Shown: positions 12,690-33,352, counted from the stretch's first letter. The stretch is DNA of 53,111 nt from a virus (IMGVR_UViG_3300035492_000099:1-53111), one strand, 5' to 3'. The notes: generated from the sequence alone by a model not told the origin. Program-made: numbers and translations.

Positions 12690-12699
12690 GGAGAATTTA

Positions 12700-13222: not shown

Positions 13223-13232
13223 GAGAATATAT

Positions 13233-13436: not shown

Positions 13437-13451
13437 ACAAGGGAGAAAGAA

Positions 13452-13805: not shown

Positions 13806-14032
13806 ACGAAAATGACATTATCTGCCGCCTGCGTAAACGGGCACAAATACGTAGGCAAATTCCAACACGCAAGTCTGTACAAGAGGGACTACCGGATCGT
13901 TTAGCTGATCTTCTCGATGAGGCAGCAGATGAAATTGGGACGTTGAGGGAAGTAAGAGATTTTTATTTGGCAATGGCTAGGAATAAAGGAGAGGTTGATG
14001 AAATTTCCAACTCTATACACAAAGGACAATAG
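13799..14032 (+). CDS. Hypothetical phage protein
   Basis: RLRKRAQIRRQIPTRKSVQEG-PDRLADLLDEAA; overlaps flanking genes by a few codons. Confidence 0.7.
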   Translation: MLDENDIICRLRKRAQIRRQIPTRKSVQEGLPDRLADLLDEAADEIGTLREVRDFYLAMARNKGEVDEISNSIHKGQ

Positions 14033-15110
14033 TGGGGACATTCGTGTTTGGGAAATCTCAACGGATGAAGCTGAGGTTATTGTAAAGCATGGCAAAGAAG
14101 GCGGTAAAATCACTTCCAAATCATATTTTGCTGAAGCTAAGAACACAGCTAAATCGAATGCTACAACCCCCTCTGAGCAAGCGGAAAAAGAGGCTGAAGC
14201 AAAACACACTCTCCAGCTTAAGCGGGGGTATTTTCTAACGAGAGAAGAAGCCCTAAACAGTGTTGCTTGGGAACCAATGAAGTGCCAAGATTATAAGGAC
14301 TATGCACACAAAGTGTCCTTCCCATGCTATATTCAACCAAAGCTCAATGGTCTTCGTATGATGATCACTTCTGACGGAATGGCATTCTCAAAATCAGGTG
14401 AGCCTTACACACTTCCAGAACATATAAAGAAAGATATCAACGATCTTAAAGTGAGGGGCTTACTAAAGCATGGCCTAGATGGTGAAATATATGCTGGCTT
14501 GAATAGTCTTTCATTGCAAGAGATTATTTCTGCATTCCGTAAGCCAAATGAGAATACAAAGAAACTAAATCTTTGGGTATATGATATTCCTGTAGCAAAT
14601 ATGACTTTCGTTGAACGGTTAAAACAATTATTTGAGGTGGCTCAGGCTACAGGCGTCTTACAAAATATCAAAATGAACAAAACAATTAAAATCTATTCTT
14701 GGGAAGATGGGAACAACGCTTACACTGGTTGGGTGAAAGGGGGATATGAAGGGGCTGTTTATCGTAATTCGCAAGGCTTATATGAGCATGGTAAACGAAG
14801 TTATGATGTGATTAAGCGAAAGCCTCGCTTAACAGCGGAGGCCCTAGTCCATTCCGTGAAAAAAGATAAGTCTGGACAGGGTATTCTTTCATGTGTTGCT
14901 GTCAATGGTGTGCAAGAAGGTGTTGCTTTCAAGTGTTTGATGAAAAAGGATGCGGATAATGATATTAATTATCGACTATATGAAAATGCGTGTACATTGA
15001 CTGGGAAGCATGTTGAGTATGAATATGAGGAGTTGTCTGACAAAAATATTCCTACAAAACCTTGTGGTGTTCGTGTTCGGGAAATGAAAGGAAATATTCC
15101 TCGTGAATAA
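13995..15110 (+). CDS. ATP-dependent DNA ligase
   Basis: QPKLNGLR (motif I), LDGEIY (III), YEGAVYR (IV), GKRS...KRK. Confidence 0.9.
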   Translation: MMKFPTLYTKDNSGDIRVWEISTDEAEVIVKHGKEGGKITSKSYFAEAKNTAKSNATTPSEQAEKEAEAKHTLQLKRGYFLTREEALNSVAWEPMKCQDYKDYAHKVSFPCYIQPKLNGLRMMITSDGMAFSKSGEPYTLPEHIKKDINDLKVRGLLKHGLDGEIYAGLNSLSLQEIISAFRKPNENTKKLNLWVYDIPVANMTFVERLKQLFEVAQATGVLQNIKMNKTIKIYSWEDGNNAYTGWVKGGYEGAVYRNSQGLYEHGKRSYDVIKRKPRLTAEALVHSVKKDKSGQGILSCVAVNGVQEGVAFKCLMKKDADNDINYRLYENACTLTGKHVEYEYEELSDKNIPTKPCGVRVREMKGNIPRE

Positions 15111-15121
15111 AGGAGAAATAA

Positions 15122-15478
15122 ATGAATAATCTACGAATTGTGCGCTATGCACGTCCTAAACAAAAAGAAATTCATAACGATAACCTATACGGAATCACTT
15201 TCGTATATGACATTGATTATGAAGATCGTATCGTATGGGCTTCTTGGTCTATATGTAATGGGGACAACTTTGAGAAGAAGGTTGGTGTTGAGCAGGCCCT
15301 TAAACGAAAGAAGTTAACATTTCCTTTAGACGATGTTAAAAATACAGGGCTTACAAAAGCATTTATGAACCGATTGTTTGGAAAAGATGTTGGTGGTATG
15401 GTGGTTGGAAATTATACCCTTATGCACCATGTGCTTTCTGAGGTTACACGCTATATTAACAGTGAGAAAACAATATGA
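15122..15478 (+). CDS. Hypothetical protein
   Basis: RBS AAGGAGA; WSICNGDNFEKKVG. Confidence 0.7.
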   Translation: MNNLRIVRYARPKQKEIHNDNLYGITFVYDIDYEDRIVWASWSICNGDNFEKKVGVEQALKRKKLTFPLDDVKNTGLTKAFMNRLFGKDVGGMVVGNYTLMHHVLSEVTRYINSEKTI

Positions 15479-15572
15479 TAGATTATTTATATTGTTTCTT
15501 TCACACAATCATTTGCTTAGATGTTATAATGAATCTTGTTAGGGTATTTTTGCTATATGAGTTAAAAATCAT

Positions 15573-16040
15573 GTGAGGAATGGTATGTATATTAGGAATT
15601 TACGGCTTTTTAGCAACAAAGTGATCCCACAGGATTCTTTGTTTGTTGTATGTGAATCTTATAAAGAACTGGAAGATAGCGTGGAGGAGACAATTTCTAC
15701 AATGAAACACAGTGATTCACATTCTCTTGTATTCATGTCAAATATTGAAGATTTCAAATATCAATGGGAAGCAAACCAAGCCGTGTATAAATTCCTCAAA
15801 GCTGTAAAACCTGAGCATGTAATGTGCTCTGGACAACGGGGTGTGGGGTTGGCTGTAGCAAGCGTTGCTCCATTGCTTGACATTCTTACAGATGTTGTCT
15901 ATAATGGCGGATATTACGTGGCATCACACGATGGACAATTCATCGAGGTGGGTTATGATAATTGTTATGCAACAATCCTTTCTCAGTATTTTATATTCAA
16001 AGCTTCTCTTGGAGGAAACACAAATGCAAACATTGCTTAA
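15573..16040 (+). CDS. Hypothetical protein
   Basis: 155-aa ORF behind a TATAAT element. Confidence 0.6.
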   Translation: MRNGMYIRNLRLFSNKVIPQDSLFVVCESYKELEDSVEETISTMKHSDSHSLVFMSNIEDFKYQWEANQAVYKFLKAVKPEHVMCSGQRGVGLAVASVAPLLDILTDVVYNGGYYVASHDGQFIEVGYDNCYATILSQYFIFKASLGGNTNANIA

Positions 16041-16257
16041 TCTGATTAGGTATACAAAACAAATTCATAAAGAGAGGTGGGATTTCCCTCTTGACACTAT
16101 AGTGGTGAAAGATTTTGAATTTGAGTCTCTTGCAAAGGATAACTATTGTTTCATAGAAGGTGTTCGTATTATCCCAGAGTCAGCCATGCTGGAAGATTCT
16201 TTGGATTATGATATTGAAGTGGATTTGGGCAATTGGGCAGCATTGCTGAGGAAATAG
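16024..16257 (+). CDS. Hypothetical protein
   Basis: ATG at 16024 after GGAGGA. Confidence 0.6.
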   Translation: MQTLLNLIRYTKQIHKERWDFPLDTIVVKDFEFESLAKDNYCFIEGVRIIPESAMLEDSLDYDIEVDLGNWAALLRK

Positions 16258-16290
16258 TTTTAGATTTTAAACAAAACACAGGAGAAATAT

Positions 16291-16566
16291 ATGAAATTTC
16301 AAAAAGAATTAGACGACTATGCAGGCTTTCTAATTAAAGCACAAGAACAGATGCAAATCTTGAAAGACCGATCAGATGAACAGGGTGCTATTGAGATATA
16401 TCAGATGTGGCTTGAGAAACGAAAAGACCTGCTGCGAAATATTGCAGAAGATTTTCGTAAAACAGGTGTACGCGCTGTAGCCACGGAGGATATTCTCATG
16501 TTGGGGGAGCTAGACCATTCGTGGTTTGTCCTTCCTGAACCAAAAGCCCACCGTGTTGTGAAGTAA
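16291..16566 (+). CDS. Hypothetical protein
   Basis: RBS AGGAGA; followed by a terminator. Confidence 0.65.
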   Translation: MKFQKELDDYAGFLIKAQEQMQILKDRSDEQGAIEIYQMWLEKRKDLLRNIAEDFRKTGVRAVATEDILMLGELDHSWFVLPEPKAHRVVK

Positions 16567-16569
16567 TCG

Positions 16570-16596
16570 TAGGGAGCCTTTGTGCTCCCTATTTTT
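16570..16596 (+). terminator. Intrinsic terminator
   Basis: TAGGGAGC-CTTTGT-GCTCCCTA followed by TTTTT. Confidence 0.7.
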
Positions 16597-16611
16597 CGTA
16601 TGGAGAATTCG

Positions 16612-16782
16612 ATGACATATGTTCTATACATGCTTGTTGGAATATTGATTGACGGAACAGCTATCCCAATGTATGCTTTTAATAGTAGATTAGCTTGTGA
16701 GTCTGCTGTACAATACATACAAGAGCAATCAGTAAAAGATGCTCATGTTTATTGTGTTGAATTGAAAATTAAGGAGATATGA
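16612..16782 (+). CDS. Small hypothetical protein
   Basis: ATG at 16612 after GGAGA. Confidence 0.55.
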   Translation: MTYVLYMLVGILIDGTAIPMYAFNSRLACESAVQYIQEQSVKDAHVYCVELKIKEI

Positions 16783-17015
16783 TGGAATATGTTTTTATTT
16801 ATATCATGATTGGTATTCTAATATCGTTTGGGATATTGGCATACGTTCACCACGAGAGAGACAGGGATGTCACTGTTAGTGATGTTCTTGCTGCTACAGG
16901 TTGGGTGTTTATTTGGCCTTTCATGATTGTTGTTATTCTCAATGACATAAATGAGAAGATAGGGGATAAGGTGCTCCTGAAGTCAAATAAGAAAGAATCT
17001 CGGTGGGATGATTGA
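16779..17015 (+). CDS. Small membrane protein
   Basis: Two hydrophobic segments, WPF motif. Confidence 0.6.
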   Translation: MMEYVFIYIMIGILISFGILAYVHHERDRDVTVSDVLAATGWVFIWPFMIVVILNDINEKIGDKVLLKSNKKESRWDD

Positions 17016-17566
17016 AATGTTTGTAGATATTTCTTTGTTGTTATTTGGCATCCTGTGCATTATTATGTTGATTACAGAACGGAGATATGATGTAATGACA
17101 TTGGGGTCTTGCATTCTTATCGGTGCGGTGCTCGTATTACTAACATTTTAGGGGAGAGGTGGATGATGACACTGAATGACTTTAGGAAGACATGGGTGGG
17201 ACGTACATTCAAATGTAGAGACACTGAAGAGACATTCACTATTCCAGAAGAAGAATGTGACCACTCTTATGCACGAGAAGGGTGGAAATGTCCCGAGTGC
17301 GGGAAGGATGGTAGAGACTGCTAAGGAAATGCTGTTTAAACACATTTAGAAGCCCCTACAAGGCTTTTAATCTGTTTGTTGGTGTGTAGGTAGCCCCTAC
17401 ATATTTAAATTGAATATAGAGCGTTTTAGACCGTTCTGTGAACACAAGGGGAAAAACATGGTGGTGTTAATTGTAGGGATCATATTTATTTGTGTATTGA
17501 TAGCACCAGAAAATATGAGCAGCAAGAAGCACGTAACAAGATTAAATCTATTCTAGGAGAGAAACA

Positions 17567-17791
17567 ATGAATCAAACAGAACACACTATTACACTTGACA
17601 GTATTTTGTATTGGGAAGGAAATGACAATACAGAAACCTCTTGCACAAAGACAACAAAAGAGCCTATGACTGTTTTTGAAATCACAGAAGTGTTTTACAA
17701 TTTTCTTCTTGGACAGGGGTATTCTATTGATGACATCATTATTGTTAAAGAGAACAAAGAAGAAGTGTCTATTAAGAATGGGTGTTATTAA
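17567..17791 (+). CDS. Hypothetical protein
   Basis: RBS AGGAGA. Confidence 0.6.
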   Translation: MNQTEHTITLDSILYWEGNDNTETSCTKTTKEPMTVFEITEVFYNFLLGQGYSIDDIIIVKENKEEVSIKNGCY

Positions 17792-18083
17792 GGGGGGAGG
17801 GGCGTCACTAATGTCGCTAATATCACCAACGCTGACAAAGCTCTACACTCCTTTACTTCTTGCTTCCATTACAGCAATGTTTCCCATGTCAGCATTAGCC
17901 TCTTCCACATCGCAGGTTGCGGCCATTGAATATGATGGGTGTAAGGCTTATGAGAATCCCTCTGGAGACATCTATGTCTTGTGTGAAAATGAAACAAAAG
18001 AGCTATTAAAAGAAAAATACATTCCTACGATGAGAGTTTGTGGGAAACGCTGTGTTATAATAATTACAGATAGAGGTTTTTGA
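17778..18083 (+). CDS. Hypothetical exported/membrane protein
   Basis: Hydrophobic signal-like segment; exact start uncertain. Confidence 0.5.
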   Translation: MGVIKGGGASLMSLISPTLTKLYTPLLLASITAMFPMSALASSTSQVAAIEYDGCKAYENPSGDIYVLCENETKELLKEKYIPTMRVCGKRCVIIITDRGF

Positions 18084-18652
18084 AAATTGAATTTAGAAAG
18101 AAAGAAGCGAATAATGGATAATGAACAGAAGCGCAATTACGACACTATTATTGAATTTTGTATTCCACAGTTTCGTAGTGGGAATGGCATCCCTGTGACA
18201 CGTAACACTGTGTCTCGGGAAGATTTGTACAAACTGTTAGACTATGTTTTGGAGATTTGGATCGATGATTAGTTATATTAAAGATTTGTTTAGTGAAGTG
18301 CGCCCTGAAATCAAACATCTTGCAGAACGTCTTAAAGAAGGAGATATTTACTATGATGTTTTTACGGGCCTGTGCAGATATGAAATTGAAAGCCTTGTAA
18401 TGAAAATAGAGAGTGTAAAGGAATTGACAAACTCCTATCCATAGAATTTAGAGCTTTCTATAAAATAATATAGGCAATTGAGACAAGAATTGGATGATGT
18501 CCTGCGATATGCCTGTGATAACACTGTGAATACGTTCATGGGAATTCCCATTGTAATTAAAGAACAGAGCAATTAAATGCGTCACACTATTGGAAATCTT
18601 TAGAATAGAACATAGCCCCCACAAGGGGCTATTAACATTTCAAAGGAACATA

Positions 18653-19930
18653 ATGCAACAAGAAAATAAAACAACATCAATAAGCGTTTTAGATGCTCCT
18701 ATGGGCACAGGAAAAACAACAGCTATTATTAATTGGATGAATAAAAACCCAAACAAGAAATATCTATATGTAAGCCCTATGTTAACGGAAGTGGAGGAGC
18801 GTATCCCCACGGCCTGTGCAGGTCTAGAGTTTGTCTATCCAACAATGAAATATAACAGTGATACTGGTGTATCTTCTAAAGGCTATTCTTTATTGTGCTA
18901 TTTACGAGAAGGAAAGAACGTAGCCTTTACACACGCCTTATTTAAGGAGATGACGCCTGAACACACAAAATTAATCAAAGAAGAAGGGTACACTCTAATC
19001 ATTGATGAAGAGATTCCTTTCATCGACCCCTATGATGGGTATTACAAAAGAGATGATATTGTCTCTTTAGAAAGCAAAGGGTTTATATTTGTTAATGAAG
19101 ACAACCTAGGGAGGGTGGAGTGGAAATGGGATGATATGCTTCCCAACACAGCCTATCAGGATTTACGTAGAATGTGTGAGATGGGACATTTGTATTGTGC
19201 AAGAGGTGAAAGAAAGATGCTTGTAACCCACCTACCCATTTCTTTGTTAGAATGCACAAAAGAAACAATCATTCTCACCTACCTGTTCAAAGGCAGTGTA
19301 ATGAAATCTTTCTTGGATATACACAACATCTGCATCAACAATTTAGTTGACACACATCCAGAAATAGATTTCTCATACGATCTTACACAATGGAAACAGA
19401 ATGTAAGAAACCTTGCAACACTGACTGATAGTCCATCAACACTGCAAATAAAAAGAAAGAATATGAATATGACATCTAACTGGTTTACTAAAACAGCAAC
19501 AAAAGATGAATTATCTTTTCTTGGTAAGGCTATACGTTCTATCATACAAAAACATGGCAGGGAAAACATCTTATTAACAACAAAGAAATCTTCATTGATG
19601 AGGAGAACAAGGGATAACAAATCAAACACAAGGTGTATCCTTCCAAAAGGATTGAACGTAGATGGTTGCTTTCTACATTCAGGAGCCAGAGCAGTGAATG
19701 ACTACGCAGACAGAGATGTAGCTATACATGCCTATAACAGGTATTTACACGTATCAACAAAAGCCTATCTACAAGACTATGGCACTCCTCCAGAGGATGA
19801 TGATTATGCCTTATCAGAGATGGTGCAATGGCTTTGGAGAACAGCTATACGTAATAATCACCCAGTTACATTCTACATATTTTCTGACAGAATGGAGCAG
19901 ATTTTAAAGGAGTGGCTTTACGACAGCTAG
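18653..19930 (+). CDS. SF2 helicase-like / origin-binding-like protein
   Basis: DAPMGTGKTT Walker A, LIIDEE Walker B, MVQWLWRTAIR motif VI-like; ATG at 18653 after AAGGA. Confidence 0.7.
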   Translation: MQQENKTTSISVLDAPMGTGKTTAIINWMNKNPNKKYLYVSPMLTEVEERIPTACAGLEFVYPTMKYNSDTGVSSKGYSLLCYLREGKNVAFTHALFKEMTPEHTKLIKEEGYTLIIDEEIPFIDPYDGYYKRDDIVSLESKGFIFVNEDNLGRVEWKWDDMLPNTAYQDLRRMCEMGHLYCARGERKMLVTHLPISLLECTKETIILTYLFKGSVMKSFLDIHNICINNLVDTHPEIDFSYDLTQWKQNVRNLATLTDSPSTLQIKRKNMNMTSNWFTKTATKDELSFLGKAIRSIIQKHGRENILLTTKKSSLMRRTRDNKSNTRCILPKGLNVDGCFLHSGARAVNDYADRDVAIHAYNRYLHVSTKAYLQDYGTPPEDDDYALSEMVQWLWRTAIRNNHPVTFYIFSDRMEQILKEWLYDS

Positions 19931-19939
19931 AGCTTCATT

Positions 19940-20049
19940 TTATGTTGTATTTTAACAGCATCCAAATTATACTTTGTAACTTATTGATATATATGATATA
20001 ATTTTCAATATCCTTGAAATACAAAGTAGTGTGTTAAAATACAAAATAA
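19940..20049. repeat. About 110-bp imperfect inverted repeat containing an IHF consensus site
   Basis: TTATGTTGTATTTTAACA / TGTTAAAATACAAAATAA, TACTTTGTA / TACAAAGTA; TATCAATAAGTTA on the minus strand at 19977-19989. Confidence 0.65.
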
Positions 20050-20400
20050 CATTACAAAATAATGTAAATATACATGGGAATAACGAATATATCCTATGAA
20101 CAACATAGTCTATATTCTATGGGAAACCATTTCCCAATTCCCCTATAAAAGCATATAGCAATTAAATATTAATTCCTATATTCCAAATATCAAAATATCC
20201 TTAGAACATCTCTTTAAAACATCTATAGGGCTGCTAATATTCGTCGCTTTAGTGTCTGGTCTTAACGCCCCAAGGCGTAGCCCTATCACATATTACCATA
20301 ATTGTCAAATATCCTAGTGTAACAGAATATTTATTACGTAACTAATTGTAAATCTATTTGACTATTCTTTGAATATATGCTATAGGGCATTAGCCCTATC

Positions 20401-20540
20401 GAGAATGATTCTCATTCTCTCATAATATTAACATCATTCTCCTTTATCATTGTTTCACATGAAACATTGTAAATAGAAATCATTCTTATTTGTATTACAC
20501 TGTTATAATGTAATAATGTAAATGAGAATAATTGTTATTT
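20401..20540. promoter_or_regulatory. Fur-box-like sites (left cluster)
   Basis: GAGAATGATTCTCATTCTC (20401-20419, 15/19 to GATAATGATAATCATTATC), AATAGAAATCATTCTTATT, AATGAGAATAATTGTTATT. Confidence 0.6.
20451..20466. promoter_or_regulatory. parS-like site 1
   Basis: TGTTTCACATGAAACA, 15/16 to TGTTTCACGTGAAACA. Confidence 0.7.
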
Positions 20541-20661
20541 GTGTTTTATTGTACCTGTTGTGTAAAAACAACAGCTATTAAATGTAACTAAGTATTTTCT
20601 TTGTTAAACAATTGTAAATGTAACAATACATTTAAATTGTAACAGAGTGTAATTGTCCTTG

Positions 20662-20710
20662 ACAACCACTATATCTTGTGGTTGTTACAAAGTGTAACAC
20701 TATATAGTGT
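20662..20710. promoter_or_regulatory. NrdR-box-like palindromes
   Basis: ACAACCACTATATCTTGTGGTTGT and ACACTATATAGTGT. Confidence 0.55.
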
Positions 20711-20770
20711 GTAACAGAGTGTAAGAGGCTTAGTCCATCCATACCTTACGGCATGTATTCCCTGCGCTAT

Positions 20771-20786
20771 TGTTCCACGTGAAACG
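20771..20786. promoter_or_regulatory. parS-like site 2
   Basis: TGTTCCACGTGAAACG. Confidence 0.7.
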
Positions 20787-21046
20787 TGGATTATATAGGC
20801 TTATTCCCTACCATAGGCAATTACGCCAGTTTACATCAAAAGATATTATATGTAATTACATTATATAAATTTATATATTGTTCTTTTCTTATATATCCTT
20901 TTGTTATATAAATCTAATGATTTATTCCCTGTTTTATTTGTATTGTTTTTGTGTACAGCCGTTTTAAGCTGTTTTTATGCTTTCCCTATGGTTACCTATT
21001 GGTAGACAAAGAAAAACGGCGCTATGGCCGTTTAAATCGTTTCTGT

Positions 21047-21295
21047 TTAGTCTTCCCCGTGATTGAGTATTCTTTGCAATTTATCTATTGTAACCCTTAA
21101 CTTGTCTTTGTCTTCCATCCATGCGAGCAGCGCTTTGTATTCTTGGTTTCTTGTTATGTCTAATTTCGCAAGCTTTAAAAGGCCGTCTAGCTCTTCCCCA
21201 AGAATATCGTCAGAGTGTTGCTTTGCCTCTTTTTCGTTAGTAAACAGTTTTCCATCGTATGTTTGGAAGCATTCAACAATTTTGTAATTCATCAT
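21047..21295 (-). CDS. Hypothetical early-region protein
   Basis: FQTYDGKLFTNEKEAKQH; last ORF of the minus-strand cassette. Confidence 0.65.
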   Translation of the reverse strand: MMNYKIVECFQTYDGKLFTNEKEAKQHSDDILGEELDGLLKLAKLDITRNQEYKALLAWMEDKDKLRVTIDKLQRILNHGED

Positions 21296-21539
21296 TTAAT
21301 TACCCCGCTACTAACATGCTATTGTTTTTTATATTAATATTCATGATTTAACCCACTCATATTCACAATAAACCAAATAAGCTTTAGCTAAAAATGGTAA
21401 TGATAAAAATTGTCTTCAGCAAATAATCTTATCATATCCATAATAGGCTTGTCTGCATATTCCGGGTATGCTTTATGTACATCCCTTAAAAGGCTTTCTG
21501 TCCTGATAACCCAATTTTCCGAAAACGGATTGTAATACA

Positions 21540-21788
21540 TTATAAAAGCTCCTTCGGTTTAATAAACTGTATTTCAGTAAACCCGCAATTGTAGGCGTGC
21601 AATGAGGCTTCCGCAACTATATCTGTATACTGGTAAGCTTTACCTGGTGAATCACTTTGTACAAAGCTTTTAATAACTTTGTTGTAACACTCTACGCTTG
21701 CACGCCATTGATATGTACCAAAAGCTTGATAAAGTCTAATTTTACATTTCATTTCCATTCCCCAAAAAACAACTCGGACAGGTAGCAT
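21540..21788 (-). CDS. Hypothetical early-region protein
   Basis: ORF in the minus-strand cassette; start uncertain. Confidence 0.5.
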   Translation of the reverse strand: MLPVRVVFWGMEMKCKIRLYQAFGTYQWRASVECYNKVIKSFVQSDSPGKAYQYTDIVAEASLHAYNCGFTEIQFIKPKELL

Positions 21789-21925
21789 ATGCCAGCGCCA
21801 ATACCTGCAACCACCATTGTAATAAAAGCTGCAACCACTACCGCGAAAAGAATATTACCGAATAACATATTAAATACTCCTTTTGAATGGAAAGCCCCAA
21901 AGGGCTTTCCGTGTTTAATTACGCA

Positions 21926-22123
21926 TTAACCCTTGTATCCGTAAGCAGTGGCAATTGCTATTTCTCCTGGTGTTAGCTTACGTTCCTTTGACCATTCTTG
22001 AGCCTTTTCCCTTATTTCCTTACCACCAATTGCTTTAACCACTGTTTGCTCGAATTTATTATTACATTTCCCAAGATCAAGAATTAAAGCATCGTGCAAT
22101 TGTTTGATAGACCAAGCTTGCAT
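21926..22123 (-). CDS. Hypothetical early-region protein
   Basis: RBS AAGGAA; directly behind a promoter. Confidence 0.65.
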   Translation of the reverse strand: MQAWSIKQLHDALILDLGKCNNKFEQTVVKAIGGKEIREKAQEWSKERKLTPGEIAIATAYGYKG

Positions 22124-22160
22124 ATTAAATATTCCTTTTTGAATGGAAAGCCAGTATGTA

Positions 22161-22190
22161 ATTCTACTCTTATTTTTAGCTCATGCAAGC
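22161..22190 (-). promoter_or_regulatory. Early promoter
   Basis: GCTTGCAT...TAGAAT, same pattern as 24515-24543. Confidence 0.55.
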
Positions 22191-22275
22191 ATTATTTATA
22201 GGTTTTACAAATTTTTACATTCTGAATTGTTTTGTTACATAATACACAAAAGAAAAGCCACTATAAATAGTGGCT

Positions 22276-22291
22276 TGTTTCCCGTGAAACA
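22276..22291. promoter_or_regulatory. parS-like site 3
   Basis: TGTTTCCCGTGAAACA, intergenic. Confidence 0.65.
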
Positions 22292-22402
22292 TTAAACAGG
22301 ATTATTTGAATATGGAAGTTAACGCAGCGTACACCGGCACTAAAAGAATCGGTGCATACCCCAAACAAACGATAACGGCCAAAATTATGATTAGTGTTTT
22401 CA

Positions 22403-23005
22403 TTAGTAAATTTCGCCGTCGATTGTAAACTTGTATTCGTTGCCTAAAATATAATCTACAATCGCCTCATCGCTCATTAAATATTCATATTCGTTTTCAA
22501 GCTTAGAATAAATTTCTTGTGAAATTGTACGTACAATTTCTGTTATTTCTTTTTCAATTTCGCTGACAGATTGCAGAGTGTTAACACTATGATAGTCTAA
22601 ACTAAAAGCAATCGTGTTTTCGTGTACGTAGTAGTTACTAATTCGTTCTACTTTGCCGTATATTTTATAAAAATATTTTCTTTGCAATTCTTGTAATTGC
22701 TTTGCCGCACCAATAAAAACAGTTTCATTAGGCGCATATTCAATTAATTTTTTAACGCCACCTTTGGCATACTCATAATTTCCCGTAAAGCTTGCACCGT
22801 CGCCTTGCGAACAAAACCCACTAAATTGTATATTGGCATCAGTGAATCCGATAAATTCAAGCATTGTTTTAATATCATCACACGTAGAATACCACCAGTC
22901 ATAATCTAGATAATACGTGTCGTTTTTAAACTTTTCAATGGCTTTGTTTTTAGCATCATCGCTCAATTCGTTAAAATTGAATAGTTCAATAGTGATAGCT
23001 TGCAT
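22403..23005 (-). CDS. Early-region phage protein of unknown function
   Basis: LFNFNELSDDAK, FSGFCSQGDGASFTG, YEYLMSDEAI...NEYKFTIDG. Confidence 0.75.
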   Translation of the reverse strand: MQAITIELFNFNELSDDAKNKAIEKFKNDTYYLDYDWWYSTCDDIKTMLEFIGFTDANIQFSGFCSQGDGASFTGNYEYAKGGVKKLIEYAPNETVFIGAAKQLQELQRKYFYKIYGKVERISNYYVHENTIAFSLDYHSVNTLQSVSEIEKEITEIVRTISQEIYSKLENEYEYLMSDEAIVDYILGNEYKFTIDGEIY

Positions 23006-23006
23006 T

Positions 23007-23384
23007 TTAGTTTTCCCTTACGAATACAAAATAAGCATATACAGAATAATCGTTGTCTTCCGTTTCTTTTTCTAAATCAGTGAAAAACCTACGTTGTCCT
23101 TTTTTCTTTGGCGTTATCCTGTTGACAGCCGCATATGCCGCCTTAGTAAGCTTATCGGCTAATGCTTCACTCTCAGGTGGAATAAACGAATAAGATAATA
23201 GCATGGTGTCGTTATCGTTACCCGCAATAGCGCCATGCTTAATTTCATTTTTAATTGATTGTTTAATGTCTTTTAAAGACATACCATGCCAAACAGGGAT
23301 GGAAACATGCGGTAAATGGTGGCCGCTCCAATAATCCGGTAAGCATGTATCAGCATGGACACACTCGAATTTAATACGTGACAT
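23007..23384 (-). CDS. Hypothetical early-region protein
   Basis: HADTCLPDYWSGHHLPH; abuts the next gene. Confidence 0.7.
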   Translation of the reverse strand: MSRIKFECVHADTCLPDYWSGHHLPHVSIPVWHGMSLKDIKQSIKNEIKHGAIAGNDNDTMLLSYSFIPPESEALADKLTKAAYAAVNRITPKKKGQRRFFTDLEKETEDNDYSVYAYFVFVREN

Positions 23385-23396
23385 TTTAAACCCCTA

Positions 23397-23729
23397 TTAA
23401 AAACCTAAATAAACGATTGTATTGTTATCAGTCACGCCGACAACAAGTGTTTCCTTTTCCAATTGTTCGCTAACATATTCGGTTATTTCTTCTTTTTCTT
23501 CAAGATAATCAGGGACATCAATATCATATTGTTCTACAATATCATCAATTGTGTTTTCCGAGTAGTCGCAACAAATAGCGATAACATAAAGCTCAATTTC
23601 TTGTCCCGTTTCTTCTTCTACGCTTTCCAAGTGTTCAAACAACAATTGCAAACCTTCATACGAAAAATTATCAGGGCGAATTTCCTTGAAAGCATCATAA
23701 AATTGATAAAAGTTAATTGTTTGTTTCAT
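23397..23729 (-). CDS. Acidic hypothetical early-region protein
   Basis: RPDNFSYEGL...VIAICCDYSE; very D/E-rich. Confidence 0.7.
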   Translation of the reverse strand: MKQTINFYQFYDAFKEIRPDNFSYEGLQLLFEHLESVEEETGQEIELYVIAICCDYSENTIDDIVEQYDIDVPDYLEEKEEITEYVSEQLEKETLVVGVTDNNTIVYLGF

Positions 23730-23781
23730 GTCTGAAAATTTCCTATAAGGGAAGAAAAGAGAATTAATTATAACACAAAAA

Positions 23782-24000
23782 TTATTCTTGCACTATTTGA
23801 AATAATGCATTTTCTGCTAATTGGTGCATACCGAAGCTGTCAAGTAATTTACCCATGCGCCACAATGCCAAAACATTGTTAATTTCGGGAATTGAAAACA
23901 AGCTTGATTCGATTATTTCATTCCCGTGATGGTAGCGTAAACGCGCTACGGGTTCATTGTGGTATTGTTTTATAACAATTTCATAATATTGAATTTTCAT
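23782..24000 (-). CDS. Hypothetical early-region protein
   Basis: RBS AAGGGA. Confidence 0.55.
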   Translation of the reverse strand: MKIQYYEIVIKQYHNEPVARLRYHHGNEIIESSLFSIPEINNVLALWRMGKLLDSFGMHQLAENALFQIVQE

Positions 24001-24014
24001 TTTTAAAATCCCTT

Positions 24015-24030
24015 CGTTTCACGTGAAACA
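24015..24030. promoter_or_regulatory. parS-like site 4
   Basis: CGTTTCACGTGAAACA, fills most of a 30-bp intergenic gap. Confidence 0.75.
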
Positions 24031-24297
24031 TTAAAAATTATATGTTTTGCCACCAATTGAAAGCCGTTTAATTGTATCACAATTAACGTTTCTATAAACA
24101 GGCTTTCCGTTATCGTGGCCCGCAATAACGGTAATATATTCTTTTTTGTGGCTTACCGGGTTATGTCCCGTATGCTCAGGATGCAAATAAACTTGCCCGG
24201 TTAACGTCCTTTCTTCGCCGTTTTTCTTGATAAACGTAACACCAAAAAATTTAGCGCCGTTTGCCTTGATTAATGCTTTAATTTCGTTTGCGTTCAT
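24031..24297 (-). CDS. Small SH3/WYL-like-fold phage protein
   Basis: FFGVTFIKKNGEERTL...YRNVNCDTI. Confidence 0.6.
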   Translation of the reverse strand: MNANEIKALIKANGAKFFGVTFIKKNGEERTLTGQVYLHPEHTGHNPVSHKKEYITVIAGHDNGKPVYRNVNCDTIKRLSIGGKTYNF

Positions 24298-24482
24298 GTG
24301 TATAATTCCTGTTTAAACTGTTTGTAGAATTCGGCGTTTTCTTCGTGCAATTCTTTGCCAATATTTAATAACATCATAGCATGAATTGAATTTAGATTGT
24401 AATATTCTGAAAATTTATCTATTGTCAGAAAATTATTTAAATAGTCCAAATGCAATTCTATTAATTGTTTCTGTATGCTCAT
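24294..24482 (-). CDS. Hypothetical early-region protein
   Basis: DYLNNFLTIDKFSEYY; first gene behind the early promoter. Confidence 0.65.
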   Translation of the reverse strand: MSIQKQLIELHLDYLNNFLTIDKFSEYYNLNSIHAMMLLNIGKELHEENAEFYKQFKQELYT

Positions 24483-24514
24483 AACTGGCCCTTGTTTGTT
24501 AACGCATGAGTGAA

Positions 24515-24543
24515 ATTCTACGCATTAAATTTAAAGCTTGCAA
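24515..24543 (-). promoter_or_regulatory. Early promoter
   Basis: TTGCAA-17 nt-TAGAAT. Confidence 0.6.
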
Positions 24544-24741
24544 GCATTCTACACAAAACAATTGTAAGAAAGTGTAAACACTTCGCTAACAGGAAATAAC
24601 GCGCCAGCGTATGCGTGCGCGATTTTAACATAAAACAAGTGTATTGTGAAGCATTATTTTACTTGTTGTATTTATTCAACTGAGGGAAACCCCCTATTTA
24701 CAAGCTAATGGAAAACGTGTTAAAATCACGCGAAAATTGTA

Positions 24742-24816
24742 AATGAGAATAATTCGTATTTATGAAATGTAATGAGAACTATTCTCATTCAGTGTCAATT
24801 GAGAATGATTATCATT
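24742..24816. promoter_or_regulatory. Three tandem Fur-box-like sites (right cluster)
   Basis: AATGAGAATAATTCGTATT, AATGAGAACTATTCTCATT, ATTGAGAATGATTATCATT. Confidence 0.65.
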
Positions 24817-24886
24817 TGCATTCGATATAGTAATATTTCGTTACAAATTTTTAAAATTTCCTCTATAGAAATTTCTATACAAACAA

Positions 24887-25000
24887 GATGCTCCAGCTAG
24901 GACAGGCTCGTTAGGATGCTCCCGTTGGGATGGTCTAGCTAGGATGCTCTGGTTGGGATTCACTGCATAGATGCTCCAATTAGGATAGTCTGGCAGGGAT
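24887..25000. repeat. Degenerate 14-bp tandem repeat, 8 units
   Basis: GATGCTCCAGCTAG GACAGGCTCGTTAG GATGCTCCCGTTGG GATGGTCTAGCTAG GATGCTCTGGTTGG GATTCACTGCATA GATGCTCCAATTAG GATAGTCTGGCAGG. Confidence 0.8.
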
Positions 25001-25360
25001 ATTTTTCAAATAAATTAAAATAGATGGTGTGGTAGGGGGTGCATATAGATATGCACATCAACATTATATTTATATAGTAGCCCTAAAAGGCTCCAGAATC
25101 GCTTGTATTGCATTTTCTATAGATAGGCTAGTGTTCATGTGTATAAAAAGGAAAACGCCTCTAAAGGCGTTTAAATGGCTCCTACATGCTCTAGCTAATT
25201 CCTATGCAAATTTCAAATTTTACATGGAATTTCATAATTGTATGTCAATTGCCATAATTTCATCGACAGCCATAATATTTTCATAATTAATTGTGGAATG
25301 TCATAATTTATATGCAATTCTAAATTGATATGTAAATCGTCATAATATTTTTCCAGAACA

Positions 25361-25549
25361 CTACAGATTGTAATACAACAACCTGTTTGCCTCTTTCATT
25401 GCATTCTCATAGTTAATTTCTAAAGGGCATGGCTCATCATACTCATGCCGATCTTGCCTTTTGTGGTGAAAACTATTGCAAGGAAGATAGGGTGGGCAAG
25501 ATTTGTATAAATTCAATAAGGCTTTTATCAATTCTTCTTCAAGCGTCAT
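25361..25549 (-). CDS. Hypothetical protein
   Basis: Cys/His-containing small ORF with RBS GGAG. Confidence 0.55.
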   Translation of the reverse strand: MTLEEELIKALLNLYKSCPPYLPCNSFHHKRQDRHEYDEPCPLEINYENAMKEANRLLYYNL

Positions 25550-25802
25550 AATTTACTCCCAATTCTAATAGAGAATTTTTTATATCATCTATTTTTTGTT
25601 GAATGTGTCTATGCATTATTTCTCTAACTGCAAGTATAACATCTCTATCTCTACTTCCTTGCAGGGAAGCGTGATTAACTCCGGGAGATGGGTAGTCAAA
25701 CCGAACAACCTCTATCAATTGAGATTCCATTAACTGTTCTTCCAGTATTTTGATTCTCTCAATCATGTGATAAATTTTATCAAAATCATTTTTCGTTAAC
25801 AT
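25539..25802 (-). CDS. Hypothetical protein
   Basis: ORF within the minus-strand operon. Confidence 0.55.
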   Translation of the reverse strand: MLTKNDFDKIYHMIERIKILEEQLMESQLIEVVRFDYPSPGVNHASLQGSRDRDVILAVREIMHRHIQQKIDDIKNSLLELGVNYDA

Positions 25803-26000: not shown

Positions 26001-26411
26001 TCATTTTCCCTCCACCCAATTTGCCGCTGCTCTTAGTGCCACTGGATTATCTTTAAACAGCCCAAGACCTTTGTTGCAACCATTGCACAACAGTCCCCGA
26101 AGATTTCCCGTAGCATGGTCATGATCCACCACAGCAACATCTAATGGTTGACCCCTTCGTCCCACTGAGGATTTTAAATCTATCTTACAGATTCCGCACT
26201 TGCCCCTAAAGGCTACCCACAAAACCCCAAACCCCTCCTCATCTATCTCATATTTCTTTTTTAATCTCCAATTTCTCTTATATTGTTTCCCCGACTCAAC
26301 ACCCCTCCCTCTCAGTATTTCCATATCTTTCTTCCAACATTCCCTACAGCGATTCTTTCTCGTAAGGTTGTCACACCCATCGGTCTTGCACTTTACTTTC
26401 TTTGATGGCAT
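26001..26411 (-). CDS. Endonuclease VII-like (homing) endonuclease
   Basis: CGIC, VDHDHATGNLRGLLCNGCNKGLGLFKD. Confidence 0.9.
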   Translation of the reverse strand: MPSKKVKCKTDGCDNLTRKNRCRECWKKDMEILRGRGVESGKQYKRNWRLKKKYEIDEEGFGVLWVAFRGKCGICKIDLKSSVGRRGQPLDVAVVDHDHATGNLRGLLCNGCNKGLGLFKDNPVALRAAANWVEGK

Positions 26412-26572
26412 TAAAATGCCTCACAGAAAATGATCTTCTCACCTACTGAATAGCTTCCTTTCTCTACAACAGATTGCCAACCATCAACATGTGCTAATTC
26501 AATAGCATCTGCCCCTTCAATTGGAGAGATTTTAGAAATCCTTCTCACTGTAGCCATTTTACGTTCAGACAT
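26411..26572 (-). pseudogene. Truncated N-terminus of a DRB0094-family RNA ligase
   Basis: MSERKMATVRRISKISPIEGADAIELAHVDGWQSVVEKGSYSVGEKIIFCEAF* (53 aa); stop overlaps the EndoVII start (TAATG). Confidence 0.7.
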
Positions 26573-26593
26573 TTAATTCTCCCTCAACCTCGG

Positions 26594-26821
26594 TTAGTTT
26601 TTACAACGATCTATATAATCAATCAGCATATCATACATGAATTTGCCAATAGCTTCGTAGTCTTTGTTTTCAATGTGTGCTCCAAGAATACGTTCTTTCT
26701 CATTAAGAATTTTATAGAATTCTTCATTGCTCATATTCTTGTGATAGAAAGCATCTGGCCCAAGCCCCTCCCAAAGAAGGGGATTGTCCACCCAAGATTC
26801 GATTTGTTCATACGAGGCCAT
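26594..26821 (-). CDS. Hypothetical protein
   Basis: ATG at 26821 after AGGAGA. Confidence 0.6.
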   Translation of the reverse strand: MASYEQIESWVDNPLLWEGLGPDAFYHKNMSNEEFYKILNEKERILGAHIENKDYEAIGKFMYDMLIDYIDRCKN

Positions 26822-26822
26822 A

Positions 26823-27140
26823 TTATTCTCCTGTGTAAAATACATTTTTAATTCCGCATTCGTTGATGTAATATTGACATATCTCACACGGCTTTGCAAG
26901 CATTTCTTTTCCATTGTTGTCAAAACGAGACACGTAAATGGAGTGTGCTTTAGAAATGTCCTTAACACGAAGTAATGCTAGGATTTCTGCATGTAAATAC
27001 TCCTTGTGAGGAAAGCCCATCTTTTCAGCAAGAGCTTTTTGTAGAGGATGGCTCTTGCTATAGGAATTACTAGCAGAAGATAACATCCTTCCGCGTTTGT
27101 CTGTCACAACAGCAGAAATAGAATATCTTTTCTTAGGCAT
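26823..27140 (-). CDS. Cytidine/deoxycytidylate deaminase-family protein
   Basis: LHAEILAL and KPCEICQ zinc motifs. Confidence 0.8.
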   Translation of the reverse strand: MPKKRYSISAVVTDKRGRMLSSASNSYSKSHPLQKALAEKMGFPHKEYLHAEILALLRVKDISKAHSIYVSRFDNNGKEMLAKPCEICQYYINECGIKNVFYTGE

Positions 27141-30364: not shown

Positions 30365-31336
30365 TTAAATGTCGTTGTAATCCACAACACCCGCTACGTA
30401 ATAGGAGCATACACGAGCTTTGGCATTATTATAGTCACGAGGGATTGCCACAAAATCTGCTGGATCAACATGTACTTCAAGAATAACATCTTCACCGGCA
30501 CTACCAAAATGCGGTAGATAACTCTTAGAACATACATGAAGCCCATAAGAGCACGTTGTATCACTATCTTCATCCACCCGATTGCGTGGAACAGACACCA
30601 CTGTCCCTACGCTGTTATCCATTGTATTAGAATGGATGTCTTTAAATGTAGAACGCACTTTCTTAAAACAGCGCACCTTACCATCAGCAAGAATCTTGAT
30701 GTCCGATGCTTCCAAGAAATCAAACAACTCATTCACTGCCCGATGCGAAGGGTTTTTGGACAAGCGTTTAGCAAAAGCAACAAGAGAAATAAATTTCTTG
30801 CTAAGATCACCCTTTTTCTCTAGGGCTTTTACAACACGTTCCACCAAACGTCCGTGGAATTCAGTTTCAACACCCTGCTCATCACGATATTTCAATTTCC
30901 CTTCATCACGATCAATGATGATTCCATCTTTTTCATACACCTCAAGCTGTGCCTTCAAACTCCCAAGAGCAAAAGCATCTTTCAGGATTTCATTGTTATA
31001 CGCAATATCATCAACAGACAGGTTTTCAATTAGAGTCTGTGCATCCTCAAATTGAGGGTGATCTTTTTGAAATACAACACGTTCATTGTCAATAAGGCGC
31101 GTAATCGCAATTACATTGCTTGTAGCAACATACATGTATTTTGGAAACTTGTCCAGTTCATCATCAGTGTAGGCATCGTATACCTCTTGCTCTTTTTGCT
31201 TCATTTCTTTTAGGATACGTCGAATGGTTTTCTCCGACACTTCAAACCAGTCTGCAATACGTTGGTTTGACCAACCATCTTCGTGCATTTCAATCACTTG
31301 AAGTTTATCGGAATGGTTAAGAATTTGTACAGCCAT
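30365..31336 (-). CDS. rIIB: rIIB-like protein
   Basis: N-terminal HTH; NPSHRAVNELFDFL, PRNRVDED...TCSYGLHVCS, VDPADFVAIPRDYNNAKARVC. Confidence 0.92.
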   Translation of the reverse strand: MAVQILNHSDKLQVIEMHEDGWSNQRIADWFEVSEKTIRRILKEMKQKEQEVYDAYTDDELDKFPKYMYVATSNVIAITRLIDNERVVFQKDHPQFEDAQTLIENLSVDDIAYNNEILKDAFALGSLKAQLEVYEKDGIIIDRDEGKLKYRDEQGVETEFHGRLVERVVKALEKKGDLSKKFISLVAFAKRLSKNPSHRAVNELFDFLEASDIKILADGKVRCFKKVRSTFKDIHSNTMDNSVGTVVSVPRNRVDEDSDTTCSYGLHVCSKSYLPHFGSAGEDVILEVHVDPADFVAIPRDYNNAKARVCSYYVAGVVDYNDI

Positions 31337-31369
31337 TTATAGCTCCTTTTAAAATGTTGTGGAGTGATG

Positions 31370-33352
31370 TTAATCTGATTTCTTTTCGTTGTCAAGCACT
31401 AATTTCACAAGTTTCTTAAAAACCGCATCGTCGGTAACCTTACCTAAGAAGAAATACTTTGATTGCATTCCCTTGCAAAAGTCTTCCACTTCTCCTATCA
31501 CACCACTAATGTCGTTTGAATTAAGTTCCTTAGCAAGAACCACATAAGAGTAGTTGGATGTCTCAGTTTTTCCAAATTTCGTAAATTCACTATCGTTGTC
31601 AATAATGAAATTCATTTTTGTAATCTCCATTTTACACTGAACGCTGTGATCTTTGTAATGTTTCAACAACAGAGATTTATTGTCTTCAAGAGCCTTGTTA
31701 CAGACATCTGCAACACTAGGAACACCTGCCTTCTCAATCTTCTTTGCATTCTTAGTGGTTTTCTTAATAAACTTATAGTCTTTTATGAAATCAAAATACC
31801 TGCCAATAGCGCGACTATCAAGTATGCCACTATAATCGGAAGTGTAGTAGGCATATTTTCCATCATTTAGGTCAAGAACAGATTCGCGCATCAAATTGAA
31901 ATCATGTGTTCCTGCTATATAGGAAACAGCCCTCACCTTACTATCTTCCAATCGTTTCCCCGTAGAGGCTCCTTTGGCGCGTTTAACGGCTGCTGGAGCC
32001 ACGTATTGCTCAAACGTAGGGGATAGGCCCAATACAGTAAACAAACGTCGTACAGACGATTCTGATGCATTCTTGAATACAAGGATTATACTATCATATC
32101 CACTGTTACGAGCCTTTTCACGCCCATATTGCATTACACCTATCTGCTTCGCTTTAGGTGGAACAAAAATAACATGAAGGGATTTCTCTGCCAGTGTGGG
32201 CAGAGCCACAGCACTACCCATGATAGCCTTACGACGAGGAACACTGTAAAGATAATTACACTTCAAAGATTTACGCAGCGGCTTATCCACCTTACCACCA
32301 CGATATGTAAATGTGTTGCTCAAAACATTCAAACTACCAAAATTCTTCTGAATATACAAACCTGCTTGATAGACATTCGGACAAGCATCAATTTGCTCTT
32401 GTGTTATTTTCTTCAAATTTGCAAAATATTCATTTGCCTTCTCTGACAGATTTTTCTTTGTCCGTTCTGTCATAGAAAGAGATTCCCTACTAGGAGTCAC
32501 TTCCAAGTCACCAATATTGTATTTCAGGAACACAGTGTTGTTATAACGATAAATGATTTGGTCATAGTATTTCTTGTTTTCATCATTCAAATCTAGGTCA
32601 TATTGAGTGACAGGATAACAAACACCGCCCATCACAGCATAGATGGATTTGTTGTAAAGATTGCTTCCCGTAAGGGACACTTTCCGAGAAACGATTCCCT
32701 CCTTTTCAATCATCCCTGCAATATCTTCCATTGCAAACTTAAATTCGGATGAGCCTTTTACAATTGGCTTTGTCTTAAAGAAAGATAGAATGAAGGATGC
32801 TTCCCATGTAAATTCACTGACCCTACTTGTGCTAATAGGAACAGAAATCTTTACACCATTTTCTTTCTCTGTATTGTCTTCGTACACCAAAGCCACTTGC
32901 GGAGCACCATCCTCACCAATGAATGCCTCGTATACACGTTCCATCCCATTTTTACGAGCAGTGATGGAGAATGTGTCGGACATTGTGAAAGGAGTTTTAC
33001 TTCCCAACCCAAACATTCCAACCGCATCATTTGTGGATTGCTTAGTCGATGTGAAGTAGGAAGTGAAGATGGAACGCACACCCTCATCATCCAACCCCAA
33101 CCCAAAATCTTCCACTTCAAAGAAAGGATTAATGAAATTAGGAAGTGTCACAACAAATGGAACATCTTCCTTTCCAGCTTGTACGTGGCTATCATAAGCG
33201 TTGCAAGACACTTCACGAATAATTGCTGCCACTTTGTGCTGATACAAACCATCAGATAGGATACGAAAAGCATGTCCTGTAGCATTGATTGTGAATTTAC
33301 TTTGCTGTGTGGTGTTTGTTTTGACAACAGACTTGGTTCCTTGAACAATCAT
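31370..33352 (-). CDS. rIIA: rIIA-like protein (HATPase N-terminus)
   Basis: LSDGLY...IREVSCNAYDSH, EDFGLGL, STK, GMFGLGSK. Confidence 0.92.
   Translation of the reverse strand: MIVQGTKSVVKTNTTQQSKFTINATGHAFRILSDGLYQHKVAAIIREVSCNAYDSHVQAGKEDVPFVVTLPNFINPFFEVEDFGLGLDDEGVRSIFTSYFTSTKQSTNDAVGMFGLGSKTPFTMSDTFSITARKNGMERVYEAFIGEDGAPQVALVYEDNTEKENGVKISVPISTSRVSEFTWEASFILSFFKTKPIVKGSSEFKFAMEDIAGMIEKEGIVSRKVSLTGSNLYNKSIYAVMGGVCYPVTQYDLDLNDENKKYYDQIIYRYNNTVFLKYNIGDLEVTPSRESLSMTERTKKNLSEKANEYFANLKKITQEQIDACPNVYQAGLYIQKNFGSLNVLSNTFTYRGGKVDKPLRKSLKCNYLYSVPRRKAIMGSAVALPTLAEKSLHVIFVPPKAKQIGVMQYGREKARNSGYDSIILVFKNASESSVRRLFTVLGLSPTFEQYVAPAAVKRAKGASTGKRLEDSKVRAVSYIAGTHDFNLMRESVLDLNDGKYAYYTSDYSGILDSRAIGRYFDFIKDYKFIKKTTKNAKKIEKAGVPSVADVCNKALEDNKSLLLKHYKDHSVQCKMEITKMNFIIDNDSEFTKFGKTETSNYSYVVLAKELNSNDISGVIGEVEDFCKGMQSKYFFLGKVTDDAVFKKLVKLVLDNEKKSD

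Follow-up and report, generated by a model that had tools for sequence, protein, structure and literature searches.

The region and its non-coding flanks

IMGVR_UViG_3300035492_000099 comprises 53,111 bp of an uncultured phage and is referred to below as the window; it is a linear fragment in IMG/VR with an estimated completeness of 48%. This work deals with a 5.4-kb region of the window, in which predicted sites for three host proteins (Fur, NrdR and ParB) lie in and around a cassette of small genes enclosed by two long non-coding flanks. The window codes for a large terminase, a Mu-type portal, PhoH, ClpP, DNA ligase, rIIA/rIIB, a DNA methylase, NrdAB, ThyX, a family-A DNA polymerase and a DnaB-type helicase, and it contains two tRNAs. 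The closest named phage is Pseudomonas phage vB_PsaM_M1 (OP714164.2; Ounavirinae, seawater; M1 in the following), whose DNA polymerase is 70% identical and which has gene modules in common with the window. The phage can be described as a FelixO1-like myovirus, probably of a Gram-negative methylotroph host. It looks strictly lytic, and no integrase or repressor was found among the 43 + 27 + 19 open reading frames (ORFs) scanned. The main features of the region are the following (a strand is given where one applies):

19931-21046: left non-coding flank, GC 0.29, between convergent genes
20398-20416: candidate Fur box D, ATCGAGAATGATTCTCATT, two mismatches to a host-derived 19-mer
20451-20466: predicted parS-1, TGTTTCACATGAAACA, one mismatch
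20467-20492: weak Fur-like unit E, prefixed by TTGTAAAT; repeat family D2 has its first copy here
20521-20539: candidate Fur box F, AATGAGAATAATTGTTATT
20659-20712, plus strand: candidate NrdR operator (TTGACA 20659-20664; box 1 20666-20681; spacer 20682-20696; box 2 20697-20712)
20771-20786: predicted parS-2, TGTTCCACGTGAAACG, one mismatch
21047-24482, minus strand: cassette; none of its 11 small genes reaches the curated cut-off of a Pfam family
22188->22161, minus strand: cassette promoter, AATGCTTGCAW-16/17-TAGAAT, near-identical to the one at 24543->24515
22276-22291: predicted parS-3, immediately before the terminator hairpin at 22255-22276
24015-24030: predicted parS-4, taking up the 30-nt gap that separates a stop codon (24031) from the following ribosome-binding site
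24483-25360: right non-coding flank, GC 0.34
24543->24515, minus strand: cassette promoter, AATGCTTGCAW-16/17-TAGAAT
24742-24816: array of candidate Fur boxes A, B and C (24742-24760, 24771-24789, 24798-24816; spacing 29 and 27)

A preliminary description of the sequence had portrayed the flanks as free of credible ORFs and packed with short palindromes, most of them not placed as operators of a neighbouring gene, with the left flank lying between convergent genes. All of this was confirmed. The longest ORFs inside the flanks code for 33-85 amino acids. Scored with a dicodon model for which 22 long window genes had served as training set, the nine flank ORFs tested were all negative (-0.05 to -0.39), as were three of three antisense controls (-0.39 to -0.62), and 10 of the 11 cassette genes were positive. 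The cassette promoters do not overlap the boxes. Palindromes were counted as perfect dyads with an arm of at least 6 and a spacer of 0-8, and compared with 300 dinucleotide-preserving shuffles; the palindrome claim withstood this comparison with shuffled sequence, which had been named beforehand. The left flank has 33 dyads (7.0 +/- 3.4 in shuffled sequence) and the right flank 18 (3.8 +/- 2.3), and in neither flank did any of the 300 shuffles reach the observed value. The five densest 1-kb segments of the 53 kb all fall within 20001-25500, with 15, 11, 10, 9 and 9 dyads; the median is 1.

At the gathering score Rfam recognized only the two tRNAs in the window, and with permissive thresholds it gave only two chance-level matches in 19700-25600. 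Apart from a 27-nt Fur unit, no flank sequence was repeated elsewhere in the 53 kb. The region was found nearly unchanged in contigs of two public runs labelled tar pit metagenome. Megablast of the flanks against the phage collection gave no match, and sensitive blastn gave only matches of 77-81 nt, in 11 records.

Candidate sites for Fur, NrdR and ParB

The sites copy the operator form used in Methylophilaceae-type bacteria, their number is far beyond chance, and they lie off the cassette promoters. Repeat analysis revealed a unit of 28-32 nt, beginning with TTGTAAATGAGAATAATT, in both flanks. Five candidate Fur sites (10 strand-matches) fall within two mismatches of the host-derived 19-mer AATGAGAATNATTCKCATT, 0.04 being expected, which bears out the earlier notion of Fur-like boxes on both sides of the cassette; a pattern derived from the window itself gave five sites with 0.78 expected. 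Of 41 genomes of the candidate host family, 23 have this 19-mer at up to one mismatch, with 1-4 sites each, and the control was 0 in 41 of 41. When prokaryotes were scanned with ATTGTAAATGAGAATNATTC, each species being represented by one genome, 69 loci were obtained. Eighteen of these (15 genomes) were titled Methylophilaceae, OM43, Methylobacillus, Methylophilales or Nitrosomonadales, other loci were from Betaproteobacteria, SAR86 and gamma-proteobacterial metagenome-assembled genomes, and the matches in Bacteroidota and Firmicutes were inside genes, reading IVNENDS. Among 29 neighbour ORFs hand-picked from 24 of the 69 loci, 10 belonged to iron-uptake families (FeoB 1, TonB-dependent receptors 4, Peripla_BP_2 1, FTR1 2, imelysin 1, ECF sigma 1) and eight to no family.

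The methylotroph form of the unit is ATTGTAAATGAGAATCATTCKCATTACAAG, a Fur-type palindrome between TTGTAA and TACAAK. On direct reading these two elements around the host box resemble promoter hexamers; the phage copies keep the box and lose the second hexamer. In the region we found no Fur box overlapping the promoter of a regulated gene, and no coding gene behind the adjacent promoter-like sites. The array in the right flank is about 200 nt upstream of the first cassette promoter (24543->24515) and does not overlap it.

When IMG/VR was scanned with the 17-mer core of the Fur unit, 46 stretches matched, of which only one, in a contig of 34.5 kb (G006), contained an array. It consists of three tandem units, 29 and 23 nt start to start, between convergent transcription units, and is 80% identical to window positions 24736-24818 over 84 nt. 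PhoH was the sole protein that the window and G006 had in common in the 22 of 34.5 kb compared. Direct reading found no promoter in G006 that would match its array. In the same contig, a strong promoter-like site (TTGATA..TGTATAAT) is situated between the convergent units (L065 9810-10256) and is followed by a terminator about 90 nt on, an arrangement that looks like a small RNA gene; downstream of that terminator are three CTATATTCYAG repeats and then the three Fur boxes.

The candidate NrdR operator of the left flank is a pair of 16-bp palindromic boxes, CCACTATATCTTGTGG (20666) and ACACTATATAGTGTGT (20697), separated by 15 bp. NrdR operators are such 16-bp box pairs, for which the sections of PMC12051234 dealing with the operator give a usual spacer of 15-16 bp; this was our criterion, with 14-17 bp tolerated. 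NrdR-like boxes had been described for the flanks in general, and only the left one has them; the right flank has none. A 20-mer made up of box 1 and its flanking bases was identical (20/20) in three of 151 family genomes, and in the two of these whose context was examined it is about 75 nt before a 720-aa ORF with a ribonucleotide reductase barrel domain. The same 20-mer was present in 10 IMG/VR contigs of varied GC, so the box is widely conserved and by itself no marker of the host. The exact box pair was not found in metagenome contigs, and a first NrdR-box pattern search in four genomes did no better than the control. In the window no nrd gene follows the operator; the phage nrdAB genes are 14 kb away, at 34346-37577, inside a long operon. 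A gene-free stretch of at least 1.2 kb near the end of an unrelated 108-kb phage contig (G161; L320 7617-8816) contains the 20-mer of NrdR box 1 as well. A perfect parS is found 790 nt from it, the stretch also has iterons (ATAAATGGAA) and inverted repeats (GAGTGCTAA), and its dyads number 18, with 5.4 +/- 3.1 in shuffled sequence.

The parS consensus is a 16-bp palindrome, TGTTNCACGTGAAACA. Four parS-like 16-mers with one mismatch each, against 0.00 expected, span 3.6 kb, and no further site with up to two mismatches was present in the 53-kb window. parS had been ascribed to the flanks in general; the left flank contains two of the four sites and the right flank none, and the remaining two occupy tight intergenic gaps of the cassette. 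For comparison, five bacterial genomes (1.0-4.3 Mb) had 0-4 sites each at up to one mismatch and 0-2 perfect copies, and 535 kb of other phage loci had two single sites. More than 119 IMG/VR stretches contain a perfect parS, and eight among the matches listed have 3-5 sites. Seven of the stretches with 3-5 sites were scanned (40 ORFs); four had phi29-type hallmarks, and no ParB family was recognized in any of these ORFs at E <= 1e-6. These clusters in phi29-like contigs thus reproduce the published phi29 case. Five perfect parS sites within 800 bp were also seen beside a Sf6-type small terminase gene in a contig with a GC of 0.51 (L187 2657-3444).

Proteins that could bind these sites are encoded by the candidate host family (ParB_N in 40 of 41 genomes, Fur in 41 of 41, NrdR in 41 of 41). 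A six-frame search of the window gave no ParB_N and no FUR match, and the only NrdR-model match, in the ATP-cone of the phage's NrdA, stayed below the cut-off. When the entire left flank was compared with the 151 family genomes by BLAST, the matches were all short; those to the parS and NrdR boxes were useful, and the remainder was AT-rich noise. The motifs suggest that the hosts are likely to be Methylophilaceae-type bacteria, and they offer a clue, from sequence only, to the host of an uncultured phage. Comparison of the phage NrdA with host NrdA was uninformative in this respect (24% identity). The proposal that the flanks are arrays of host-protein sites thus stands for Fur, NrdR and parS, whose labels survive the tests on bacterial genomes, and not for IHF, which is at chance level: the IHF consensus (WATCAANNNNTTR) is present at 19977-19989 as described, and of eight sites in the window one is in the flanks.

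Other motifs and promoter-like elements of the region are the following:

19974-20002, plus strand: promoter-like TTGTAA-17-TATAAT with TG, no gene behind, overlapping the IHF consensus
20501-20509: extended -10, TGTTATAAT, between Fur units E and F (direct reading)
20556-20573, plus strand: TGTTGTGTAAAAACAACA (TGTTGT-N6-ACAACA), starting 16 nt after Fur box F
20637-20724, plus strand: three direct repeats TGTAAS-ARAG-TGTAA (starts 20637, 20682, 20709)
20955-20972, plus strand: terminator-like hairpin
21014-21033, minus strand: cassette terminator
22255-22276, minus strand: terminator hairpin within the cassette
24562-24577: fourth copy of TGTAAS-ARAG-TGTAA
24697-24726, plus strand: promoter-like TTTACA-18-TAAAAT (TG), directed away from the cassette into the Fur array
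24886-25000, plus strand: eight head-to-tail 14-nt repeats, GGATGCTCYRGYTR
25153-25172, minus strand: terminator of the upstream minus-strand genes
25233-25346, plus strand: six CATAAT hexamers within 114 nt

The palindrome TGTTGT-N6-ACAACA, which had been likened to a HexR-type motif, is present at 20556-20573 as claimed. The identical 18-mer TGTTGTGTAAAAACAACA, loop included, occurs 39 nt from a double Fur box in a Methylophilaceae-type genome (G007), in the same order and orientation; there it belongs to a divergent region between an inverse-autotransporter-type outer-membrane gene and a 426-aa ORF without Pfam match. The pattern has 33 sites in the 41 family genomes, against 6 in the control, and no link to HexR was found. 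The HexR label is unsupported and, since the 18-mer stands beside Fur boxes also in that genome, not needed. TGTAAS-ARAG-TGTAA (39 against 9 in the control, both strands) and TGGGAAA-N3-TTTCCCA (18 against 6, forward strand) were weakly enriched in the family, and their contexts in the family genomes named no regulator. The palindrome AGGGAAACCCCCT noted earlier is indeed present at 24683-24695; it has only 4-bp arms, and no support for it was found. Further strong palindromes of the flanks, TGGGAAACCATTTCCCA, TATAGAAATTTCTATA and GTGCATATAGATATGCAC, have no assigned binder.

We rejected a CsrA-sponge RNA as an explanation of the 14-nt repeats, which are GGA-bearing: CsrA was present in one of the 41 family genomes, and there was no Rfam match. 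A search with the iteron pattern gave one chance match, in coding DNA with a GC of 0.52. No other 130-nt stretch of the plus strand is as rich in CATAAT as the one in the right flank, and the maximum on the minus strand is two. DnaA boxes are not enriched, with 21 at up to one mismatch in the window and one in the flanks.

Possible roles of the sites

The explanation we favour, with a probability of roughly 0.4, is that the region is a cluster of predicted sites for three host proteins rather than for phage proteins, and that these sites would act mainly in trans, as a sink. It would offer five to six Fur boxes, one complete NrdR operator and four parS sites around small early-type genes. A host chromosome has 1-4 strong sites of each kind and each phage genome would add about as many, so that during DNA replication the phage sites would come to outnumber those of the host. 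This would pull NrdR and Fur away from the promoters of host nrdAB and of iron uptake, and the result would be more ribonucleotide reductase, and more iron for it, when the phage needs deoxyribonucleoside triphosphates (dNTPs). The parS sites would load host ParB onto phage DNA. We prefer this explanation because NrdR and Fur are repressors, whose removal would raise dNTP synthesis and iron supply, because the phage itself codes for iron-dependent NrdAB and ThyX, and because no regulated gene is in view. The occurrence of arrayed Fur boxes in two unrelated phages (the window and G006), the preservation of the core of the Fur unit without the host's second promoter hexamer, and the similar number of strong sites in one phage genome and in a whole host chromosome also argue for it. 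Derepression of the iron and dNTP regulons, as suggested in the preliminary description, would be coherent with the site counts.

About 4% of the sequenced DNA would be devoted to host-protein sites. Host takeover is usually explained by phage proteins; here the agents would be DNA sites for proteins of the host. If the region is a sink, it would represent a natural titration of regulators by viral DNA and would, in small-genome methylotrophs, couple the replication of the phage to the supply of iron and nucleotides. Short, synthesizable fragments could serve for tests. It is possible, though we find it doubtful, that the region goes further and is dedicated decoy DNA, about 2 kb of gene-free host-operator copies that strip NrdR, Fur and ParB from the chromosome without any phage protein. 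In that case host dNTP synthesis and iron uptake would be switched on and chromosome partition disabled.

It must be noted that several observations weigh against a sink. Each phage genome has one NrdR operator only. Fur is abundant in well-studied bacteria, therefore a sink for it would need many genome copies. ParB is outside the dNTP logic. The assignment of the host group has the motif matches as its sole basis. M1 and five IMG/VR relatives are without these sites, thus the feature is not required by the lineage as such. Some boxes have promoter-like settings, which would suit regulation in cis: a perfect TTGACA precedes the two NrdR boxes, by 7 and 38 nt, and in host nrdA promoters the box follows TTGACS by 39 nt.

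Such regulation in cis, which we regard as rather unlikely, would make the boxes operators of flank promoters for non-coding or antisense RNAs that are on when iron (Fur off) or dNTPs (NrdR off) are short. The phage would thereby read the state of its host, and parS would position or hand down phage DNA as in phi29. What keeps this explanation alive is the presence of gene-less promoter-like sites beside the boxes (19974-20002; 24697-24726 before the Fur array; TGTTATAAT at 20501-20509; the TTGACA at 20659 before the NrdR boxes), to which the plus-strand terminator-like hairpin at 20955-20972 can be added, as well as the precedent of phi29, which according to PMC2731898 has Spo0A boxes at its promoters and, in addition, five parS sites. 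However, no ORF with coding signal lies behind the flank promoters, Rfam gave no match, the -10 element of the putative NrdR promoter is poor (TTGTTA), and the Fur array of G006 is without matching promoter. Folding z-scores of 11 short segments ranged from +0.30 to -3.74, and the best segments were the palindromic operators themselves. If regulation in cis were nevertheless correct, the phi29 idea of a virulent phage that reads the host state and rides ParB would extend to Gram-negative hosts, Fur and NrdR. It is less probable still that the region is a maintenance module, an origin and/or centromere serving replication or partition via the host ParABS in a carrier or starved state. The four parS sites within 3.6 kb, the eight 14-nt direct repeats, the GC of 0.29 and the gene-less promoters would fit such a module, as would the weak matches of a neighbouring gene for a 446-aa protein (Herpes_ori_bp, Walker-A stretch, E 3.9e-5; phrog_4913, E 8e-4), the perfect-parS clusters in phi29-like contigs without ParB among the scanned ORFs, and the 1.2-kb stretch of G161, in which short iterons and a perfect parS likewise accompany an NrdR box. 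Yet the cumulative GC skew peaks, instead of reaching its bottom, at the left flank (a reading confounded by gene direction), the 14-nt period does not agree with the helical repeat, there is no enrichment of DnaA boxes, a maintenance role would leave the Fur and NrdR sites unexplained, and the phage looks strictly lytic.

Two further explanations appear highly improbable to us. According to the one, already raised in the preliminary description, the region is terminal and controls injection, host proteins holding or coating the DNA that enters first, as at the injection stop signal (iss) of phage T5. The region resembles such a segment in being large, untranslated, rich in repeats and palindromes and adjacent to small early-type genes; the relevant portion of bioRxiv 10.1101/866236 describes eight DnaA boxes in the corresponding region of T5-like phages, and the M1 stretch at 16474-17339 is likewise palindrome-rich. 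On the other hand, contigs of two runs cross both flanks unbroken, the two ends of the M1 record lie at other places in the gene order, and the only flank repeat found elsewhere in the 53 kb is the 27-nt Fur unit. According to the other, the palindromes are operators of phage-encoded proteins and merely resemble host sites. With half of the genome missing, with cassette proteins of no assigned function and with several flank palindromes and repeats lacking an assigned binder, there would be room for such proteins. But three unrelated motif classes each match host operators, two of these classes share stretches of 18-20 nt identical in genomes of the candidate host family, and the six frames of the window contain neither ParB_N nor FUR, with NrdR represented by the sub-threshold NrdA match. 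The Fur array shared by the window and G006, with PhoH as their sole common protein in the part compared, also speaks against operators of phage-encoded proteins.

Known systems, relatives and neighbouring sequences

Clusters of host-protein sites are already known from virulent phages. In the Fur titration assay (FURTA), Fur boxes on a multicopy plasmid derepress the Fur regulon. The mechanism proposed here would be the same titration, with the difference that FURTA is a laboratory plasmid assay and the region would be its natural, phage-borne equivalent. Lytic phages of Alphaproteobacteria reportedly carry sites of CtrA, a global regulator of the host, which tie phage gene expression to the state of the host (PMC9437464); unlike those sites, described as controlling phage genes, the sites in the window come with no evident regulated gene. 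The likeness to the Bacillus phage phi29 consists in a virulent phage with several sites for the host partition protein together with sites for a host regulator, neither protein being phage-encoded (PMC2731898). The differences are that the window belongs to a FelixO1-like myovirus, probably of a Gram-negative methylotroph host without spores, that its regulators would be Fur and NrdR, and that its boxes are in gene-free arrays and not at early-gene promoters. Like the iss region of T5, as outlined in bioRxiv 10.1101/866236, the region is a large untranslated segment beside early genes with repeats, inverted repeats, palindromes and ordered host-protein sites, but T5 has, on the same account, DnaA boxes in its terminal repeat.

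Where the same convergent blocks meet in M1, with the gene order unchanged, there is a gene-free stretch of 866 bp (16474-17339), and it too is palindrome-rich, with 12 dyads against 2.6 +/- 2.0 in shuffled sequence (none of 200 shuffles reached 12). It differs from the region in that it has none of the parS, Fur-type or NrdR-type sites at the thresholds used, and in that one large module is inverted. Five IMG/VR relatives were also without these sites, with no parS at up to one mismatch. Because the M1 stretch is palindrome-rich and yet without these motifs, the lineage may be characterized by a dense non-coding hub whose content depends on the host. The inversion relative to M1, of the block PhoH/ClpP/ligase to terminase/portal, sets window positions 1-19930 against 25361-53111, and the region lies at one of its breakpoints.

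Within the cassette, the minus strand has an ORF for a hydrophobic peptide of 33 amino acids (22302-22403), a gene for a 200-aa protein (22403-23005; phrog_5162) and a gene for a very acidic 110-aa protein (23397-23729; phrog_9974). No relative of the 200-aa protein or of the neighbouring 446-aa protein was found in IMG/VR, and none of the latter in JGI metagenomes. Further on, at 26001-27140, an endonuclease VII gene is located beside a 53-aa ORF whose match to an RNA ligase family is confined to the first 56 residues of that family, and a 105-aa ORF nearby corresponds to no more than the middle part of a dCMP deaminase family; these ORFs may be split or decayed genes. The rIIA- and rIIB-like genes are at 30365-33352 on the minus strand, and the rIIB-like protein has an N-terminal helix-turn-helix. 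In run X1, short contigs of 4.6-7.3x depth match only motif-bearing pieces of the flanks (20066-20162, 20615-20653, 24720-24755 and 25203-25239), with 4-9 differences each, and other phages of that sample seem to share single flank modules.

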